Shown here in pieces: positions 7,270 through 20,610 of a DNA stretch of 64,000 nt (positions are counted from its first letter, which is position 1; every line of letters starts with the position of its first letter). A model generated the notes under the pieces. It saw nothing but the letters and a program-made list of their open reading frames with translations, was not told the DNA's origin and searched no databases. The DNA is from Patescibacteria group bacterium. Its GTDB lineage: Bacteria; Patescibacteriota; Minisyncoccia; Phycocordibacterales; JACOZG01. The DNA lies in NCBI GenBank assembly GCA_038065495.1, contig JBBTQW010000002.1, forward strand, positions 362,641 through 426,640, in the 5' to 3' direction. The position numbers were made by a program, and so were the translations under genes.

Positions 7270-7297
7270 ATTATAGCAAGTCCACAGAACTTGTCAA
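7270..7297 (-). promoter_or_regulatory. Sigma-70 promoter with extended -10 (TTGACA / TGCTATAAT)
   Basis: Reverse complement reads cTTGACAagttctgtggacTTGCTATAAT. Near-identical spacer (ttctgtgga) to the promoter at 23303. Confidence 0.6.
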
Positions 7298-9800: not shown

Positions 9801-9828
9801 TTGACAAGTTCTGTGCATATGCTATGCT
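9801..9828 (+). promoter_or_regulatory. Promoter TTGACA-N16-TGcTATGCT
   Basis: cTTGACAagttctgtgcataTGCTATGCT upstream of the secreted-protein gene. Confidence 0.55.
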
Positions 9829-10733: not shown

Positions 10734-10786
10734 CGTGGTTGGGAGTGCTGTGTTGCACTTTGTAAATCTACTGAAAGGGTAAATTC

Positions 10787-11316: not shown

Positions 11317-12339
11317 CTAAATTAGTTTTCCCTGCTTATCTTGTGGATAATCGTAGCCGAGGTGATCATAAGCTTTTTTCGTTGCTTGGCGGCCGCGCGG
11401 CGTGCGCTCCAGCATTCCCAATTGAATTAAATATGGTTCATGGACTTCTTCAATCGTCGCTTCTTCTTCGTGCGTCGCCGTGGCAATCGTGCTCACGCCG
11501 ACTGGCCCGCCGTTGAACTTCTCAATCATCACGGCCAGCATTTTGCGGTCGCCTTCGGTCAGTCCCAGCTCGTCCACGCCCATTAGGCTTAGCGCTTCCC
11601 GCGAGATTTGGTGATTGATTTTCTCGTTTCGCAGTTGCGCGAGATCGCGACATCGCTTCAAGAACTGATTGGCAATCCGGGGTGTAAACCGACTGCGCTG
11701 GGCAATCTCCAGCGCTGCTTTTTCTTCCAGATCTACACCCAAGATCTGCGCCGAGCGCTGGATGATACTTTTTATTTCCTCACTGGAGTAAAATTCAAGC
11801 CGAAAAGTGCCACCGGAGAAGCGCGAGCGCAGTGGCGCAGAGAGTAATGCCGGTCGAGTGGTCGCGGCTACGAGCGTGAAGGGTGGGAGATCGAGTTGGA
11901 TCACGCGCGCGCCGGGACCTTTGCCAATAATGATATTTAATTTGCCACTTTCCATCGCGGGATAGAGAATTTCTTCGATCATTTTGTTCAAGCGATGCAC
12001 TTCGTCTATAAAGAGCATATCGCCTGATGCTAAATTGGTGAGAATGCTCGCGAGATCGCCGACGCGCTCAATGGCTGGGCCGGAAGTAATTTTTAACTGC
12101 GCACCAATCTCTTTGGCAATCAAGTGGGCGAGTGTGGTCTTGCCGAGGCCGGGTGGACCGTAGAAAAGTAGATGTTCCGGCGGCTGACCACGCTCTTTGG
12201 CGGCGCGGAGCAAGATTTGGAGGTTGTCTTTGATATTTTTTTGGCCAATATAATCGGCCCAGGCGCTTGGTCGGAGCGCACTATCGAGGAACCACTCGGG
12301 CGAGGCGGTATTTGGCTGGTTGTTCTTGCTACTTGACAT
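11317..12339 (-). CDS. ruvB: Holliday junction branch-migration ATPase RuvB
   Basis: 340 aa. Walker A GPPGLGKTTLAHLIA. RuvB winged-helix C-terminal domain. Confidence 0.95.
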   Translation of the reverse strand: MSSSKNNQPNTASPEWFLDSALRPSAWADYIGQKNIKDNLQILLRAAKERGQPPEHLLFYGPPGLGKTTLAHLIAKEIGAQLKITSGPAIERVGDLASILTNLASGDMLFIDEVHRLNKMIEEILYPAMESGKLNIIIGKGPGARVIQLDLPPFTLVAATTRPALLSAPLRSRFSGGTFRLEFYSSEEIKSIIQRSAQILGVDLEEKAALEIAQRSRFTPRIANQFLKRCRDLAQLRNEKINHQISREALSLMGVDELGLTEGDRKMLAVMIEKFNGGPVGVSTIATATHEEEATIEEVHEPYLIQLGMLERTPRGRQATKKAYDHLGYDYPQDKQGKLI

Positions 12340-12361
12340 TTAATCTTGGTTATGCTAGGAT
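12333..12361 (+). promoter_or_regulatory. Plus-strand promoter TTGACA-N17-TGcTAGGAT overlapping the ruvB start codon
   Basis: cTTGACAtttaatcttggttaTGCTAGGAT. Same family as the other strong promoters. Would transcribe the 238-nt ruvB-pilB intergenic region on the plus strand. Confidence 0.4.
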
Positions 12362-12367
12362 GCCCTT

Positions 12368-12570
12368 TGGTTGGTCATCAAGGTCATAAACCTCTAAGCA
12401 ACTAAGCTCTTCCGGGTTTAAACGGGTTTAGCCAAAAGGACAAGGCAGTTACTAGCTTTCGGGCCAGTTTGCTTCCTTTATCCTTGCGGCTTTACCTCAC
12501 TCTCCGCTTTGGCGGAGGGGCTTGCTTAGAGGTTTATGCTCTCGATGTAAGGTGCCAACCGTTCGGGATT
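12368..12570 (+). ncRNA. Candidate structured ncRNA of about 200 nt with extensive 5'/3' end pairing, class unknown (6S-like or SRP-like rod topology)
   Basis: Perfect 17-bp long-range helix 12385-12401 / 12522-12538. Outer GGUUGG/CCAACC (12368-73 / 12555-60). Inner CUCUUCC/GGAGGGG. Local hairpin ctccgc-tttg-gcggag. No ORF. Confidence 0.35.
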
Positions 12571-12577
12571 TACTCTA

Positions 12578-14451: not shown

Positions 14452-15048
14452 ATGAAAAGGTCTTTGATTTGGATTGCTGTTATCGTTCTTCTCTTCGTCG
14501 CGCAAGTCGCTTCGGCACAGAACTATTCTGCCGGACGCCATTCTTATGGCGGTGGATACTATGGCTTCGGTGGTGGTGTGCGGCCAAGTTTCTTGAGTTC
14601 TGGCCGGGGTTGTAATTCTGGTTACTATCAGAGTTACCGCTACAGCTCTTACTACTACAATCCTGCGCCGATTATCTACGCTCCGCCGCCGGTGATCTAT
14701 CGGCCTCAGCCGATCTACTACAGCCAGCCGGCAGTTGTTTATACACAACCAGCGCCGGTGGTGGTGAATGTGGTTCCGGTCAAGATTTGGACTGAAGCGG
14801 AACTGATCTCAGTGGTGAAGCAACGCTTTGAGATGAAATATCGCAGCGAGCTGAGCCAGATCAGCGACATCACGATCCAGCGTGTGGCCGGCAGTGAGGA
14901 GTATCACAAGAGCGGCGCCATGGAAGAGGTCAAGTACCTCGTTATCTGGAATTTCACTGAGAAATCTCGAGATGGCGTGGAGAAGACCACGATGAAAGAC
15001 AAGAAAGTCGAACTTGAGTTCGACAAGTTTGGGAATCTGGACGATTAA
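14452..15048 (+). CDS. Secreted low-complexity Tyr/Gly/Pro-rich protein
   Basis: Signal peptide MKRSLIWIAVIVLLFVAQVASA. GGYYGFGGG...YYYNPAPIIYAPPPVIYRPQPIYYSQP repeats. Confidence 0.55.
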   Translation: MKRSLIWIAVIVLLFVAQVASAQNYSAGRHSYGGGYYGFGGGVRPSFLSSGRGCNSGYYQSYRYSSYYYNPAPIIYAPPPVIYRPQPIYYSQPAVVYTQPAPVVVNVVPVKIWTEAELISVVKQRFEMKYRSELSQISDITIQRVAGSEEYHKSGAMEEVKYLVIWNFTEKSRDGVEKTTMKDKKVELEFDKFGNLDD

Positions 15049-15073
15049 GCATCTTCCAAATTGCCGGACAACC

Positions 15074-15106
15074 CAGCCCCAGCGGAAACGCCGGGGCTGT
15101 TTTTTA
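15074..15106 (+). terminator. Intrinsic terminator agccccagcg-gaaa-cgccggggct plus T6
   Basis: 10-bp GC stem with GAAA loop, then TTTTTT. Confidence 0.7.
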
Positions 15107-15125
15107 TGCTAAAATCGGGTAGTAA

Positions 15126-15557
15126 ATGGTAGAAAAGTTGAGCAAAAGTCTAGAGGAGACGAGAGAATTAGCCAGAGATTTCTTGGCTAGTTTGAACGCG
15201 AATAATACCAGCGCAACTGTTGTTGGTTTGTCTGGAGATCTTGGTTCTGGTAAAACCGCCTTCACGCAAGCCTTGGCGCGCGAGCTAGGCATCTCTGAAC
15301 CAATCACCAGCCCGACTTTTGTGCTTGAAAAAATATATAAACTAGAGAATCAGAAATTCGGGAAGTTAATTCACGTTGATGCGTATAGATTAGAGGGTGG
15401 CGCAGAATTATTGAAACTCGGTTTTGCAGAATTATTGCAAGATAAAAGTAATTTGATAATTATTGAGTGGGTCGAGAGAGTGCGAGAAATTTTGGGTGAG
15501 TTTAGAGAAATAGATTTTAAATTTATTGATGAACAAACTCGTGAAATCAAATACTAA
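15126..15557 (+). CDS. tsaE: tRNA t6A37 threonylcarbamoyladenosine biosynthesis protein TsaE
   Basis: 143 aa. P-loop GLSGDLGSGKTAFTQ. SPTFVL and HVDAYRL motifs of YjeE/TsaE. Confidence 0.8.
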   Translation: MVEKLSKSLEETRELARDFLASLNANNTSATVVGLSGDLGSGKTAFTQALARELGISEPITSPTFVLEKIYKLENQKFGKLIHVDAYRLEGGAELLKLGFAELLQDKSNLIIIEWVERVREILGEFREIDFKFIDEQTREIKY

Positions 15558-17910
15558 AGTTAAAACTAAAAATAAAAACAGCAAGAAGCTAATCTTGCTC
15601 GACGCGCATGCGATTATCCATCGCGCTTATCACGCGCTACCAGACTTCCAGAATAGCGCTGGTGTGCCCACGGGCGCGCTGTACGGTATCGCCGCGATGC
15701 TGGTGAAAATTATTAACGAACTCAAGCCGGATTATCTGGTGGCTTGTTACGACCGTGCGGAGGCCACTTTCCGGAAGCAGATTTATGATGATTACAAAGC
15801 TGGTCGGGCGAAGACGGAAGATAATCTGGTTGCGCAACTTGAGAGTTCACGTGAATTATTCACGAGCTTCAATATTCCCATCTATGATCTCGCCGGCTTC
15901 GAAGCTGATGACATGATTGGCACGATTGTAGAGCAGATTAAGCAAGATAAAACGCAGAAGAACACGCAAGTGATTATCGCGAGTGGCGATATGGACACAC
16001 TTCAGCTGGTTGATGATGAGAAAGTGGTGGTTTATACGCTCAAGAAGGGAATTAATGACACTATTCTGTATGACGAGCAGAAAGTGGTTGAACGCTTTGG
16101 CTTCAAGCCAGAACTCTTGCCGGATTGGAAAGGTTTGCGTGGTGATCCGAGTGACAACATCATCGGCATTGCGGGCATTGGTGAGAAAACGGCGACTATT
16201 TTGATTACTAAATTTGGCAAACTGGAAGAGATTTATAAAAAACTGAAAGATAAGAAAGTAGAGAAAGAAAATTTTAAGATTTTCAGAGAAGCGGGCTTAA
16301 CTGACAGAATTATTAAATTACTAAAAGATGGCGAAGAAGAAGCGATTTTTTCGAAAACGCTCGCCACGATTCGAAGAGACGCCGGAATTAAGTTTGTGTG
16401 GCCGGAGAAAGTCTGGCGGGAGAGTGTGGATCTCGAAAAAGTGGATGAGTTGTTTAAGAAACTGGAATTCCGAACACTTGGCACGCGTGTGAGATCAGCG
16501 CTAAGTGGCGAAGCGGTGATTAGCGCGAAAACTCCAGCTAAGCCAGAGCCAGAAATATTAGAATCAGAGCTGGCGATTGCGGTTGGCTTGCTGGATTCGG
16601 AAGTGGGCAGTGCGCCGACAAGAGAAGATCTGGAGCGCTTGGGCGGAGAAGAGAAAGTCTTAGCTGAACTAAAAAAGACTAATTTACAAAAAGTTTATGA
16701 AAATATCGAATTGCCACTTGTTGCTATTCTGGAGAAAGCGCAAGAGCACGGGATTCTGGTTGATGTAAAATATTTGAAAAAATTATCAGAGCAATATCAT
16801 GCCGAACAGACAGAAATAGAGCAGAGAATTTATAAAACCGTTGGTCAGGAGTTTAATCTTAATTCGCCGAAACAGCTTGCTGAAATCTTGTTTGATAAAT
16901 TGATGCTGAAAACGGGTAAAAAAACCGCCGGTGGCGCACGCAGTACGAAAGAATCTGAGCTAATTAAACTGCAAGATTCTCATCCGGTAATTGCTGATAT
17001 TCTCGCTTATCGCGAATTACAGAAATTGCTCTCCACTTACATCGATAGTTTGCCAAACTTGGTAGATAAAAACGGCCGACTGCACTCTAAACTGCATCAA
17101 CTCGGCGCTGCGACTGGGCGGATGTCTTCGTCTGATCCTAATCTCCAGAATATCCCAGCGAGTGGTGAGCGCGCAACGGAAATTAGGCGCGCTTTTCTGG
17201 CCAGTCCGGGCTACGCTTGGTGCGCTTGTGATTATTCGCAGATCGAGATGCGTGTGCTGGCAGCTCTCTCGGGAGATCAAGAATTGATCCGGATTTTCAA
17301 CGCTGGCGAGGATGTGCACACGAGTGTAGCCGTGCGCGTTTTCAAAGTTAAGCCAGAAAATGTCACAAAAGAAATGCGACGCCGCGCGAAGGTGATTAAC
17401 TTTGGCATTGTGTATGGCATGGGCGTTAATGCGTTGAAGGCGAATTTGGGAACGAGCCGAGACGAAGCGCAGAAATTCTATGACGATTATTTCGCAAACT
17501 TTCCCAGCATCCAGAACTATTTCGAAGAAGTTAAGACTAATGCACGGAAACTGGGTTATACCGAAACTTTCTTTGGCCGACGCAGATATTTCTCCGGACT
17601 CAAGTCTAGCTTGCCATTTGTGCGCGCGATGAACGAGCGCATGGCGGTGAATGCGCCGCTCCAAGGCACAGCGGCGGATATTGTGAAGATTGCGATGCGC
17701 GAAGTGGATGAGTTAATTCAGAAGAACAAGTGGCAAGATTCGGTGCACTTACTACTCCAAGTCCACGACGAGCTGATCTATGAGATCAAGAGTGAGAAAG
17801 TAGACGAGATTCTACCGCAAATCAAGCAAGCAATGGAGAATGTGAAAGGCTTGAGCGTGCCGCTGGTCGCCACAGCGGGGAGTGGGCCGAACTGGGCGGA
17901 GGTGAGGTAA
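15529..17910 (+). CDS. polA: DNA polymerase I (5'-3' exonuclease plus polymerase domains; 3'-5' exonuclease domain apparently reduced)
   Basis: 5'-nuclease LLDAHAIIHRAYHAL. Pol motif A DYSQIEMRVLA. Motif B RRRAKVINFGIVYGMG. Motif C QVHDELIYE. Confidence 0.9.
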   Translation: MNKLVKSNTKVKTKNKNSKKLILLDAHAIIHRAYHALPDFQNSAGVPTGALYGIAAMLVKIINELKPDYLVACYDRAEATFRKQIYDDYKAGRAKTEDNLVAQLESSRELFTSFNIPIYDLAGFEADDMIGTIVEQIKQDKTQKNTQVIIASGDMDTLQLVDDEKVVVYTLKKGINDTILYDEQKVVERFGFKPELLPDWKGLRGDPSDNIIGIAGIGEKTATILITKFGKLEEIYKKLKDKKVEKENFKIFREAGLTDRIIKLLKDGEEEAIFSKTLATIRRDAGIKFVWPEKVWRESVDLEKVDELFKKLEFRTLGTRVRSALSGEAVISAKTPAKPEPEILESELAIAVGLLDSEVGSAPTREDLERLGGEEKVLAELKKTNLQKVYENIELPLVAILEKAQEHGILVDVKYLKKLSEQYHAEQTEIEQRIYKTVGQEFNLNSPKQLAEILFDKLMLKTGKKTAGGARSTKESELIKLQDSHPVIADILAYRELQKLLSTYIDSLPNLVDKNGRLHSKLHQLGAATGRMSSSDPNLQNIPASGERATEIRRAFLASPGYAWCACDYSQIEMRVLAALSGDQELIRIFNAGEDVHTSVAVRVFKVKPENVTKEMRRRAKVINFGIVYGMGVNALKANLGTSRDEAQKFYDDYFANFPSIQNYFEEVKTNARKLGYTETFFGRRRYFSGLKSSLPFVRAMNERMAVNAPLQGTAADIVKIAMREVDELIQKNKWQDSVHLLLQVHDELIYEIKSEKVDEILPQIKQAMENVKGLSVPLVATAGSGPNWAEVR

Positions 17911-17912
17911 TA

Positions 17913-17941
17913 TTTACAAAAAAGTGTTATGTTGCTAATGT
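17913..17941 (+). promoter_or_regulatory. Promoter TTTACA-N17-TGcTAATGT
   Basis: Downstream of the polA stop. Drives a short non-coding transcript. Confidence 0.4.
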
Positions 17942-17948
17942 GTGGCTG

Positions 17949-18123
17949 ATGGTTGGCGGCTGGTGCCTTGATTCAAAATGAGACTCGACCTAACCATGTC
18001 CCATTGGGGCATCGACTACAACACAATACCACTGGATGCATCCGGTAATTAATCGAGGAGATCACACCAGCTGCCCCCATCATTTATCGCCCAGACATAC
18101 TGTCTAAGGGCGGTTTTTCTTTT
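17949..18123 (+). ncRNA. Candidate structured ncRNA of about 175 nt with its own promoter and intrinsic terminator
   Basis: Long closing helix UGAUGG-uu-GGCGGCUGGUG (17952-68) / CACCAGCUGCC-c-CCAUCA (18068-87). Internal palindrome GGATGCATCC. Terminator cgccc-agac...gtct-aa-gggcg plus T-tract 18088-18123. Only 10-24 aa ORFs, none with an SD. Confidence 0.35.
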
Positions 18124-18136
18124 CCCAAAACTTTCA

Positions 18137-18145
18137 TGCTATAAT
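18137..18145 (+). promoter_or_regulatory. Extended -10 TGCTATAAT for the mgtC-like gene
   Basis: tcaTGCTATAATctgc 25 nt upstream of ATG 18170. Confidence 0.5.
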
Positions 18146-18169
18146 CTGCTTAAGTAAAAAGAGCAAAAT

Positions 18170-18652
18170 ATGCTAGATATTGCCGTCAATAACTGGGAGA
18201 TTATCGCCAAACTGATTTTCGCTGTTGTCCTCGGCGGCGCGGTGGGCATTGAGCGCTCGCTGGCGGGCAAGACGGCGGGCATGCGCACCTATGCGCTGGT
18301 GAGCATGGGCTCGGCGCTCTTTGTGATTATCGCTGACCTGGTGACGCGGCAGTACTTGGCGCTGGGGATCCGCAGTTTTGACCCGCTCCGCGTGGCCTCG
18401 CAGATTGTGGTGGGCATCGGCTTCTTGGGCGCGGGTTTGATTATTTTCAAAGATCACAAGGTCAGTGGCCTCACCACCGCGGCGGGTGTGTGGGTCTCCT
18501 CCGGCATTGGCATGGCCGTGGGTTATGGTTTGTATACTCTGGGATTATTTGTTTCTATTCTCACGCTGTTGATTTTTACCGTTTTCTGGACTTTGGAAGA
18601 AAAAGTGGCGGGCAATCGCGCTGGTGGCGGGGCGGGCCGAGAAAAAGAGTAA
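18170..18652 (+). CDS. MgtC/SapB family membrane protein
   Basis: 160 aa. IIAKLIFAVVLGGAVGIERSLAGKTAGMRTYALVSMGSALF matches the MgtC N-domain. Confidence 0.75.
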   Translation: MLDIAVNNWEIIAKLIFAVVLGGAVGIERSLAGKTAGMRTYALVSMGSALFVIIADLVTRQYLALGIRSFDPLRVASQIVVGIGFLGAGLIIFKDHKVSGLTTAAGVWVSSGIGMAVGYGLYTLGLFVSILTLLIFTVFWTLEEKVAGNRAGGGAGREKE

Positions 18653-19339: not shown

Positions 19340-19744
19340 ATGGGCTGGACAAAAATGAAAGTATGGACTCGTGAGGAGGTTCTTGCTGGCGTGAAGGAGA
19401 TCTTGGTCGTCGCTCTTGGCGTGGACGAAGATGAGATCACAGAGGAGGCAACACTCACTGGCGATCTTGGGGCGGAGTCGATTGATTTTTTGGACATCGC
19501 TTTTCGCTTAGAGCGGGCGTTTGGGATTAAGATTCCGAAAGGCGAACTTTTCCCGCTCGATGGTTTGGGAGACAGCGTTCTAGACGACGGAGCGTTTTCT
19601 GCGAGCGGAGTGAGGTTTGTGAGGGAGATGCTCCCAGGTGTGGACATTTCGGAATTTGAGAAAGATCCACGTCTTGAGAAACTTCCCAACCTCTATACAG
19701 TTAAAACTCTGTTTAACTATGTGATGCACAAACTGGCCACTTGA
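19340..19744 (+). CDS. Acyl-carrier-protein-like (PP-binding) protein with a 55-aa C-terminal extension
   Basis: AAGGAGG RBS. LTGDLGAESIDFLDIAFRLERAFGIKIP resembles the ACP phosphopantetheine attachment site (DSLD motif as ESID). Confidence 0.55.
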   Translation: MGWTKMKVWTREEVLAGVKEILVVALGVDEDEITEEATLTGDLGAESIDFLDIAFRLERAFGIKIPKGELFPLDGLGDSVLDDGAFSASGVRFVREMLPGVDISEFEKDPRLEKLPNLYTVKTLFNYVMHKLAT

Positions 19745-19824
19745 ACTTCCTAGCCAACCCAAGCCCCGAATCGCGCAAGCGAGGAAGGGCTTTTTTCTTG
19801 CCTAAAAAATGCTAAACTCGGGAG

Positions 19825-20610
19825 GTGAAAACTTTTCTCTCTTGGAACGTGAACGGAATTAGGGCTGCGGAACGGAAAGGTTTCGTGGCTTGGCTGGCTG
19901 GCTGTGGGGCGCAGATTGTGGCCGTGCAGGAGACGAAAGTCAGTGATCATGGTGTGCTGAGTGCTGATTTATTAGCGCCGGACGGTTATGTGAGCTTCTG
20001 GCACGGCGCGACGGAGAAAAAAGGTTACAGTGGCGTGGCGTGTTTTGTGAAGAAAGATTTCTTGCCGAAGAAAGTAAAAACAGATTTCGGTAAAAATAGT
20101 TTGCTCAATAAAGAAGGCAGAGTAATAGAATTAGAATATGACGATTTTACTTTCTTAAACATTTACTTTCCCAACGGCGGCGCAAGTGAGGAGAGATTGA
20201 AGTTTAAACTAGAATTTTATGCGGAATTTTTGGATTATATAAAAAAGTTGGTGAAAAATAATAAGCAAGTAATTTTCTGTGGTGATGTGAACACGGCGCA
20301 TCAAGAAATTGATCTAGCCAGACCGAAAGAGAATGCGAACCATTCGGGATTTATGAGAATAGAACGTGATTGGCTGGATAAATTTGCAGAAAATAATCTG
20401 ATAGACACTTTCAGACATTTTTATCCGGACAAAGCTCAGCAATACACTTGGTGGGATCAGAAGACAGCCGCGCGCGAGCGCGATGTGGGCTGGAGAATAG
20501 ATTATTTCTATGTCAGTTCTAATCTGAAAAATAAAATTACAGATGCTTTTATTCTAGCTGATGTGCTTGGCTCAGATCATTGTCCGGTGGGTTTGAAAGT
20601 TGATCTGTAA
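19825..20610 (+). CDS. xth: Exodeoxyribonuclease III (AP endonuclease, Xth family)
   Basis: 261 aa. LSWNVNGIRA, CGDVNTAHQEIDL, WRIDYFYVS, SDHCPV. GTG start with GGGAGG RBS. Confidence 0.9.
   Translation: MKTFLSWNVNGIRAAERKGFVAWLAGCGAQIVAVQETKVSDHGVLSADLLAPDGYVSFWHGATEKKGYSGVACFVKKDFLPKKVKTDFGKNSLLNKEGRVIELEYDDFTFLNIYFPNGGASEERLKFKLEFYAEFLDYIKKLVKNNKQVIFCGDVNTAHQEIDLARPKENANHSGFMRIERDWLDKFAENNLIDTFRHFYPDKAQQYTWWDQKTAARERDVGWRIDYFYVSSNLKNKITDAFILADVLGSDHCPVGLKVDL

Follow-up and report, generated by a model that had tools for sequence, protein, structure and literature searches.

A strain-specific, small-RNA-like cassette in a compact replacement hotspot between polA and mgtC of a Patescibacteria group bacterium

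INTRODUCTION

What occupies the 259 nt between polA and the MgtC/SapB-family gene (mgtC) that follows it in a Patescibacteria group bacterium? The initial annotation of the 64-kb stretch of DNA analyzed here, which we refer to as the window, placed an independent short transcript in this gap, consisting of a promoter, about 175 nt of structured RNA, and a strong terminator and devoid of a credible open reading frame (ORF). It also raised the possibility that this RNA regulates mgtC by terminator gating, perhaps as a metal-sensing leader. Here, we consider the anatomy of the element, its occurrence in relatives, and the explanations that compete for it.

RESULTS

Layout of the locus

The element lies between polA and mgtC in a run of genes that starts upstream of polA with tsaE and continues downstream of mgtC with a UDG-family gene and an Exo_endo_phos gene. 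The PolA protein of the window is 100% identical to a recorded protein (P0001); its best species-level match (locus L054) is 73% identical, and its relatives point to Patescibacteria/Paceibacteria. The base composition of the element is unremarkable, and the only terminator downstream of polA is the one inside it. The features of the locus are as follows.

15529 to 17910, plus strand: polA (DNA polymerase I), with its ATG at 15529 and the Pfam domains DNA_pol_A, 5_3_exonuc_N, and 5_3_exonuc
17903 to 18108, no strand assigned: variable cassette segment, without detectable homology to the corresponding slot of relatives, between flanks that are 88 to 92% identical
17913 to 17941, plus strand: predicted promoter of the genome's own form, TTTACA, a 17-nt spacer, and TGC-TAATGT (extended -10)
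17947 to 17973, plus strand: closing helix, 5' arm (present in both the MFE and the centroid fold)
17974 to 18050, plus strand: A/C-rich interior with two small hairpins, not significantly structured when taken alone
18051 to 18082, plus strand: closing helix, 3' arm (present in both the MFE and the centroid fold), ending 3 nt before the terminator stem
18086 to 18123, plus strand: intrinsic terminator, with a 12-bp interrupted stem (18086 to 18114) followed by the U-tract GUUUUUCUUUU up to 18123
18137 to 18145, plus strand: mgtC's own extended -10 promoter, TGCTATAAT, after a conserved T-tract/CCCAAAA block
18170 to 18652, plus strand: mgtC (Pfam MgtC, E = 1.4e-34)

A predicted promoter of the genome's own type

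Directly 3' of the polA stop codon (17908 to 17910), the proposed TTTACA-N17 promoter is indeed present as a predicted site, with its -35 element TTTACA at 17913 to 17918 and TGC-TAATGT at 17933 to 17941. A generic sigma-70 scan missed it because its -10 box, TAATGT, fits at 3 of 6 positions. The site does belong to a motif class specific to this genome, TT[GT]ACA-N13-15-TGnTAnnnT, which occurs 10 times in the window, compared with 0.14 expected occurrences and a maximum of 2 in first-order Markov simulations. On the strength of this motif match, the element would have a promoter of its own, as a small RNA (sRNA) gene should. It is the only one of the 10 sites with TTTACA as its -35 element; the other nine have TTGACA. 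At 4 of the 10 consensus promoters, the hexamer GGTTGG is found about 2 to 9 nt 3' of the -10 box (about 0.05 expected; sites at 10737, 12369, 17951, and 47184, with a further one at 7297 on the minus strand), and this hexamer may be a motif near the transcript start. The 9-mer GGTTGGCGG is common to the element and an unrelated cassette in a relative (locus L056, positions 2801 to 2809).

The window also contains near-identical promoter modules of about 30 to 60 nt, in which CTTGACAA...TGCTATACTTAGG is accompanied by a leader hairpin; these recur at 9801, 14352, 23303, and 47151 and, on the minus strand, at 7297. The cassette of the relatives L058/L138 contains a module (L058, 1879 to 1939) with 89% identity to one of them, which suggests reuse or mobility of such modules.

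A long closing helix and a terminator around an open interior

The plus strand of the region from 17944 to 18123 folds with an MFE of -66 kcal/mol (z = -4.95), and none of 200 shuffled sequences folded as well; the z score of the minus strand is -2.59. When the terminator is left out, the core scores -3.67 on the plus strand and -1.75 on the minus strand. In a scan of 180-nt windows along the plus strand, the element ranks second of 532. The top-ranking window (14944 to 15123) covers the 3' end of an ORF (14452 to 15048) with its terminator and has a z score of -5.2 (-7.1 in the coarse scan). Since the 3' end of a gene plus its terminator can reach such a value, the z score alone does not prove the existence of an RNA gene.

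The dominant feature of the fold is an interrupted closing helix of 25 bp, in which 17947 to 17973 pairs with 18051 to 18082; the 5' arm UGAUGG-UU-GGCGGCUGGUG-CCUUGAUU is matched by the 3' arm AAUCGAGG-AGAUCA-CACCAGCUGCC-C-CCAUCA. The 5' arm begins about 6 nt past the -10 box, which is where the transcript would be predicted to start. Three G-U pairs were counted in the plus strand helices, and their equivalents on the minus strand would be A-C mismatches. The interior comprises hairpins at 17985 to 18015 and 18031 to 18046, the latter enclosing the 10-nt palindrome GGAUGCAUCC (18034 to 18043) that had been pointed out earlier. The stretch from 17973 to 18054 (82 nt; A27 C23 G14 T18) gives a z score of only -0.96 when folded alone. 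With an interior that lacks significant structure, the "structured RNA" is in essence a long closing helix and a terminator, with open A/C-rich sequence between the helix arms. The initial description of a structured RNA of about 175 nt holds for the long closing helix and the overall fold but not for the interior. Likewise, the canonical terminator is borne out both by the fold and by a terminator scan (match at 18099 to 18114), whereas the CUCGA/UCGAG helix described earlier is absent from the MFE fold, in which UCGAGG pairs instead with CCUUGA within the closing helix.

Coding potential

The longest ORFs on the plus strand encode 31 aa (from a TTG start), 24 aa, and 23 aa, and those on the minus strand encode 36 and 25 aa. 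The 31-aa ORF is longer than the 10 and 24 codons initially given as the maximum, but inspection of the sequence revealed no Shine-Dalgarno (SD) sequence before any ORF of the element, in agreement with the annotation, and the conclusion that there is no credible ORF stands.

Nevertheless, the element could encode a small protein or be a type I toxin mRNA, with the long 5'-3' pairing masking translation. Fold-back pairing between the 5' and 3' ends is typical of type I toxin mRNAs (hok, tisB, and similar), and the slots of relatives do hold genes for small membrane proteins (59 aa in L140; 65 to 68 aa in L043/L050). Against this, the plus strand ORFs are very short, none of their translations resembles a small hydrophobic toxin, and their start codons either are buried in helices or are not preceded by a purine tract, as judged by inspection. 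We consider a coding function very improbable.

No homologue in the sequences searched

At gathering thresholds, Rfam 15 identified only tRNAs in the window, and on 17850 to 18220, the sole hit at E <= 10 was a noise-level match to AgvB (16.6 bits versus a gathering score of 56). Hence, no Rfam family matches the element. ARAGORN found neither a tRNA nor a tmRNA in 17800 to 18300. For comparison with relatives, we used 55 polA-anchored loci from GTDB species representatives, 80 MgtC-anchored metagenome loci, and 11 additional loci from relatives, with PolA or MgtC as the anchor, 146 loci in total (about 0.83 Mb). A single-sequence covariance model of the element (R1) matched nothing but the element itself in the window and these 146 loci, and blastn and nhmmer searches of the first 137 loci and of the slot regions of most later ones yielded no homologue. 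As to the comparison of the regions downstream of polA, proposed at the outset, neither the 55 polA-centered loci nor the 11 further loci contain a counterpart. Phage and plasmid collections, searched by distant blastn, and viral contigs, searched by pattern scans, gave chance matches (27 nt in the blastn searches) or nothing. Within the window, a search for the helix arms with up to 3 mismatches returned only the element, and a repeat search assigned it to no family, indicating that it is single copy. Beyond promoter sequences, it shares only GGTTGG(CGG) with the cassette of L056 and with another structured RNA in the window (12333 to 12575; see below). The proteins that fill the slot in relatives showed no relic similarity to the element when it was examined as a possible pseudogene. 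Its best duplex with any of 74 translation initiation regions in the window was no better than expected by chance, being equaled by 21% of shuffled sequences. A search of the literature on noncoding RNAs in Patescibacteria/CPR found nothing relevant.

Since no homologue was found in the collections searched, there is no covariation to support the fold and no evidence of purifying selection. The initial annotation had named a lack of conservation in relatives as grounds for abandoning its proposal, and the element is indeed missing from all close relatives examined. In our view, this weakens the case for a functional structured RNA, whereas the predicted anatomy of a transcription unit stays.

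A hypervariable slot between conserved genes

The gene order tsaE-polA-[slot]-mgtC-UDG is conserved in Paceibacteria relatives, but the content of the slot is hypervariable, and its size ranges from 0 to 1.9 kb. In a blastn comparison of L056 with the window, the alignment breaks off at 17902 and picks up again at 18109. The slot contents of the relatives are as follows.

L056/L057 (MgtC 100% identical; flanks 88 to 92% identical at the DNA level): an unrelated, ORF-less stretch of 248 nt with its own promoter and terminator
L139 (PolA 95% identical): empty, with a 40-nt polA-mgtC gap, TAG-GGTTTAC-TTTCCCCAAAATTTTCG-TGCTATAAT
L138/L058 and L143 to L145 (PolA 95% identical): a hairpin, a consensus promoter, and a 131-aa ORF
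L140 (PolA 89% identical): a 59-aa ORF, apparently for a two-helix membrane protein (by inspection), and a terminator
L146 (same MgtC 90% cluster): a different ORF and a terminator
L054 (more distant): a PD-(D/E)XK/Cas4-like gene
L001 (more distant): a PemK-family toxin gene and a further ORF alongside a PD-(D/E)XK/Cas4-like gene
L141 (more distant): a 58-aa ORF and a YafQ-family toxin gene 3' of polA, on a contig that stops before mgtC
L142 (more distant; PolA 74% identical): 722 nt with a long, near-perfect hairpin (about 30 bp) and no called gene
L043/L050 (more distant): a 65- to 68-aa ORF with a hydrophobic N-terminal stretch and a terminator

Thus, the element is absent both from relatives with 89 to 95% identical PolA and from those with identical MgtC. 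The cassette of L056 (2697 to 2950) has a TTGACA-N16-TGCTAGGGT promoter, a second promoter-like site, and a terminator stem of 15 bp; its fold is not significant (z = -1.28), and it has no Rfam match. In L056, L140, and L146, the occupant of the slot is followed by its own terminator hairpin directly before the conserved mgtC promoter. The hairpin region of L142 (5125 to 5400) has z scores of about -3.3 on the plus strand and -3.5 on the minus strand, that is, it folds equally well on both.

Relatedness also changes across the slot. The MgtC of L056 is 100% identical to that of the window, while its polA is only 88% identical at the DNA level; conversely, L139 has a 95% identical PolA, but the N terminus of its MgtC differs. 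This mosaic suggests recombination breakpoints at the slot. The assignment of the locus as a compact replacement hotspot is firmer than any reading of the element as an RNA. A second nonhomologous segment is found nearby, between the UDG and Exo_endo_phos genes (19340 to 19830 in the window versus 4169 to 4486 in L056), with a 134-aa ORF containing a PP-binding domain in the window and a 75-aa product in L056.

Given the complete lack of conservation, two explanations in which the element is not an RNA gene remain in play. The element may be a nonfunctional relic, that is, the promoter and terminator of an old cassette around a decayed or truncated payload in a fast-recombining slot. The inverted repeat would then have arisen at the DNA level, for instance by template switching or hairpin-mediated rearrangement, and the whole would be kept only through the use of the terminator to polA and mgtC. 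Such an origin would be consistent with the extreme variability of the slot among genomes with 89 to 100% identical flanking proteins, with its emptiness in L139, and with the unstructured interior of an element conserved nowhere we searched. Moreover, the ORF-less cassette of L056/L057 and the ORF-poor, hairpin-containing gap of L142 indicate that noncoding filler and palindromes recur in the slot. On the other hand, similarity to the cassette proteins or DNA of relatives is not detectable, the promoter still fits the consensus, and the predicted start and the terminator precisely bracket the helix. In addition, the plus strand has a clearly better fold than the minus strand, which a purely DNA-level palindrome would not have. 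Altogether, we think it rather unlikely that the element is a relic of this kind.

Alternatively, the element may have arrived 3' of polA by insertion of a mobile element of the miniature inverted-repeat or palindromic type (MITE, ERIC-like, or PATE-like), with the closing helix representing its terminal inverted repeats. The dimensions would fit a 140-bp unit with imperfect terminal inverted repeats of 27 to 32 bp, the slot is prone to insertions, and L139 offers what looks like an empty site, TTTAC followed immediately by TTTCCCCAAAA, where the window has TTTAC, about 200 nt, and TTTCCCAAAA. However, the element occurs once in the 64-kb window, and neither the related loci (0.83 Mb) nor the phage, plasmid, and viral sets contain it; its repeats are not flanked by a target-site duplication, and the variable segment takes in the promoter and the terminator, both of which lie outside the repeats. 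We therefore regard a mobile element as improbable.

mgtC has a conserved promoter of its own

The promoter TGCTATAAT at 18137 to 18145 lies 3' of the terminator, as the initial annotation had stated, and is part of a right-edge block (T-tract, CCCnAAAA, TTTC, and TGCTATAAT) present in all close relatives that include this junction. It is conserved in L056, L140, L146, L139, and L138/L058, and in L139, mgtC has it although the slot is devoid of any element. The view that the element is not simply the leader of mgtC is hence well founded, as this promoter is kept whatever lies upstream. A T-tract followed by the motif CC(C)AAAA forms a repeat family (D1) with 7 copies in the window, at terminator-promoter junctions (129, 18112, 19790, 22263, 32710, 47013, and 49782).

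Could the element still be a cis-regulatory leader or riboswitch, for example for Mg2+, whose terminator controls read-through into mgtC? It immediately precedes an MgtC-family gene of the same orientation, and its shape, a long P1-like helix with two hairpins before a terminator, is loosely that of an aptamer. In contrast, the mgtC promoter is conserved under six different upstream contents, the empty slot included, and the 95%-PolA relative L139 manages with a gap of 40 nt. Homologous RNAs, whose regular presence before mgtC-family genes would have suggested a metal-sensing leader, were found neither at the 80 MgtC-centered metagenome loci nor in close relatives. No Rfam family, including the M-box, was matched at E <= 10, and the junction region has no significant structure. 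Finally, the MFE and centroid folds contain no competing antiterminator, the closing helix and the terminator coexisting in both. The idea of a terminator-gated mgtC leader or Mg2+ sensor was rejected on these grounds, namely, the conserved promoter, the empty slot of L139, the lack of homologues, and the lack of competition between helix and terminator. It is largely refuted, and we give it hardly any weight.

A second candidate structured RNA in the window

Elsewhere in the window, 12333 to 12575 on the plus strand contains a consensus promoter, TTGACA-N-TGCTAGGAT (12333 to 12361), followed by a predicted RNA of about 200 nt with a closing helix of 26 bp (arms at 12376 to 12401 and 12522 to 12547) and a four-way junction. 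It folds with an MFE of -95.4 kcal/mol (z = -8.06), has no Rfam match at E <= 10, and is located between two minus strand genes, one of which encodes a T2SSE/MshEN ATPase. As a candidate unannotated structured RNA, it is much stronger than the polA-mgtC element.

DISCUSSION

In this study, we confirm the initial sequence observation in the gap between polA and mgtC. The most fitting description of the locus is that of an orphan cassette resembling a small-RNA gene, within a compact replacement hotspot. As to its nature, we tentatively favor a strain-specific, independently transcribed sRNA on an exchangeable cassette that also ends polA transcription, although we would not place this account above even chances. 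That the element is an independent transcript is plausible from its sequence, albeit without comparative support.

Several observations, besides the match to the genome-specific promoter motif and the unusual fold, are in favor of an sRNA. The closing helix starts at the very base where transcription is predicted to begin and stops 3 nt short of the terminator; such precise framing is not expected of a random palindrome. The core folds better on the plus strand than on the minus strand (-3.67 versus -1.75), and the three G-U pairs fit with this orientation. There is no credible ORF and no relic similarity to the slot proteins of relatives. In addition, the RNA at 12333 to 12575 has the same layout, so RNA genes of such a layout seem to exist in this genome, and the occupants of the slot in L056, L140, and L146 likewise have a terminator of their own. 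Conversely, the -10 hexamer TAATGT is weak and the TTTACA -35 element is the sole one among the 10 promoters, the fold consists of a single long inverted repeat and a terminator around an interior without significant structure, and the element is absent from genomes with 89 to 95% identical PolA or identical MgtC and had no homologue in any sequence searched.

If the element is an sRNA gene, the following picture emerges. The strain-specific cassette at 17903 to 18108 in the hypervariable slot would carry a self-contained small noncoding RNA gene, transcribed from about 17947 to 17950 by a promoter of the genome's own type that presumably fires. The first 27 nt or so would pair with about 32 nt just before a constitutive intrinsic terminator. 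The resulting RNA of about 170 to 175 nt would presumably accumulate and would have a base-paired, protected 5' end and a terminator hairpin at its 3' end. Between the helix arms, some 77 nt of mostly open A/C-rich sequence would be free for RNA pairing or protein binding, and the RNA may act in trans. Since polA lacks a terminator of its own, the same hairpins would also serve as its 3' untranslated region (UTR) and terminator, and they would insulate mgtC, itself started from its own conserved promoter.

Conceivably, the polA-mgtC gap of this Paceibacteria lineage is a dedicated exchange site at which strains swap self-contained modules of promoter, payload, and terminator, some of these payloads being fast-evolving structured noncoding RNAs (as in the window, L056/L057, and L142). 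Such RNAs might have accessory roles, for example in defense or addiction, comparable to those of the PemK, YafQ, and Cas4-like payloads, and would then make up a class of RNA cassettes, each confined to a strain, not described so far for ultra-small genomes. This scenario is speculative, and we consider it improbable as a whole.

If real, the element would be among very few candidate regulatory RNAs in Patescibacteria, and it would imply that strain-specific noncoding genes occur in the flexible regions of genomes as small as about 1 Mb. With mgtC predicted to be expressed from its own conserved promoter whatever lies upstream, the idea of a new metal-sensing leader is removed.

How does the element compare with known systems? 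One general class is that of bacterial sRNA genes ending in a Rho-independent terminator, among them 3'-UTR sRNAs that are transcribed from a promoter of their own up to the terminator of the mRNA. The element resembles these in its predicted promoter, its size of about 175 nt, its lack of an ORF, and its strong intrinsic terminator, as well as in directly following a coding gene that depends on the same terminator to end its transcripts. Like many sRNAs, it is strain specific, but it is not conserved even at 95% PolA identity. We know of no RNA chaperone context in Patescibacteria. With 6S RNA, a housekeeping RNA, the element has in common its size, its long closing helix, and its predicted independent transcription; in contrast to 6S RNA, it does not have a rodlike interior with a central bubble, has no Rfam 6S match (E <= 10), and is absent from close relatives.

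The M-box (ykoK) Mg2+ riboswitch and the enterobacterial mgtA and mgtCBR leaders are similarly found upstream of genes of Mg2+-associated families and consist of a structure followed by a terminator. Unlike these leaders, the element matches no covariance model, lies upstream of the mgtC promoter and hence outside the 5' UTR, is not conserved with mgtC, and has no antiterminator alternative that we could find. MITE and ERIC elements offer a parallel in length (about 140 bp), in their long imperfect inverted repeats, in their intergenic location, and in the hairpin RNA that would be produced, but the element differs from them in being single copy in the sequences searched, in lacking a target-site duplication, and in possessing its own promoter and terminator.

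Finally, the locus may be compared with flexible genomic islets, the replacement hotspots between core genes. The slot is very small for such an islet (0 to 1.9 kb), several of the payloads of relatives have their own promoter and terminator, and no integrase or recombination site was identified at it. It nevertheless shares with these islets the conserved flanks, tsaE-polA on one side and mgtC-UDG on the other, and a strain-specific payload, which in relatives includes toxin genes (PemK and YafQ), a Cas4-like PD-(D/E)XK nuclease, and small membrane proteins.
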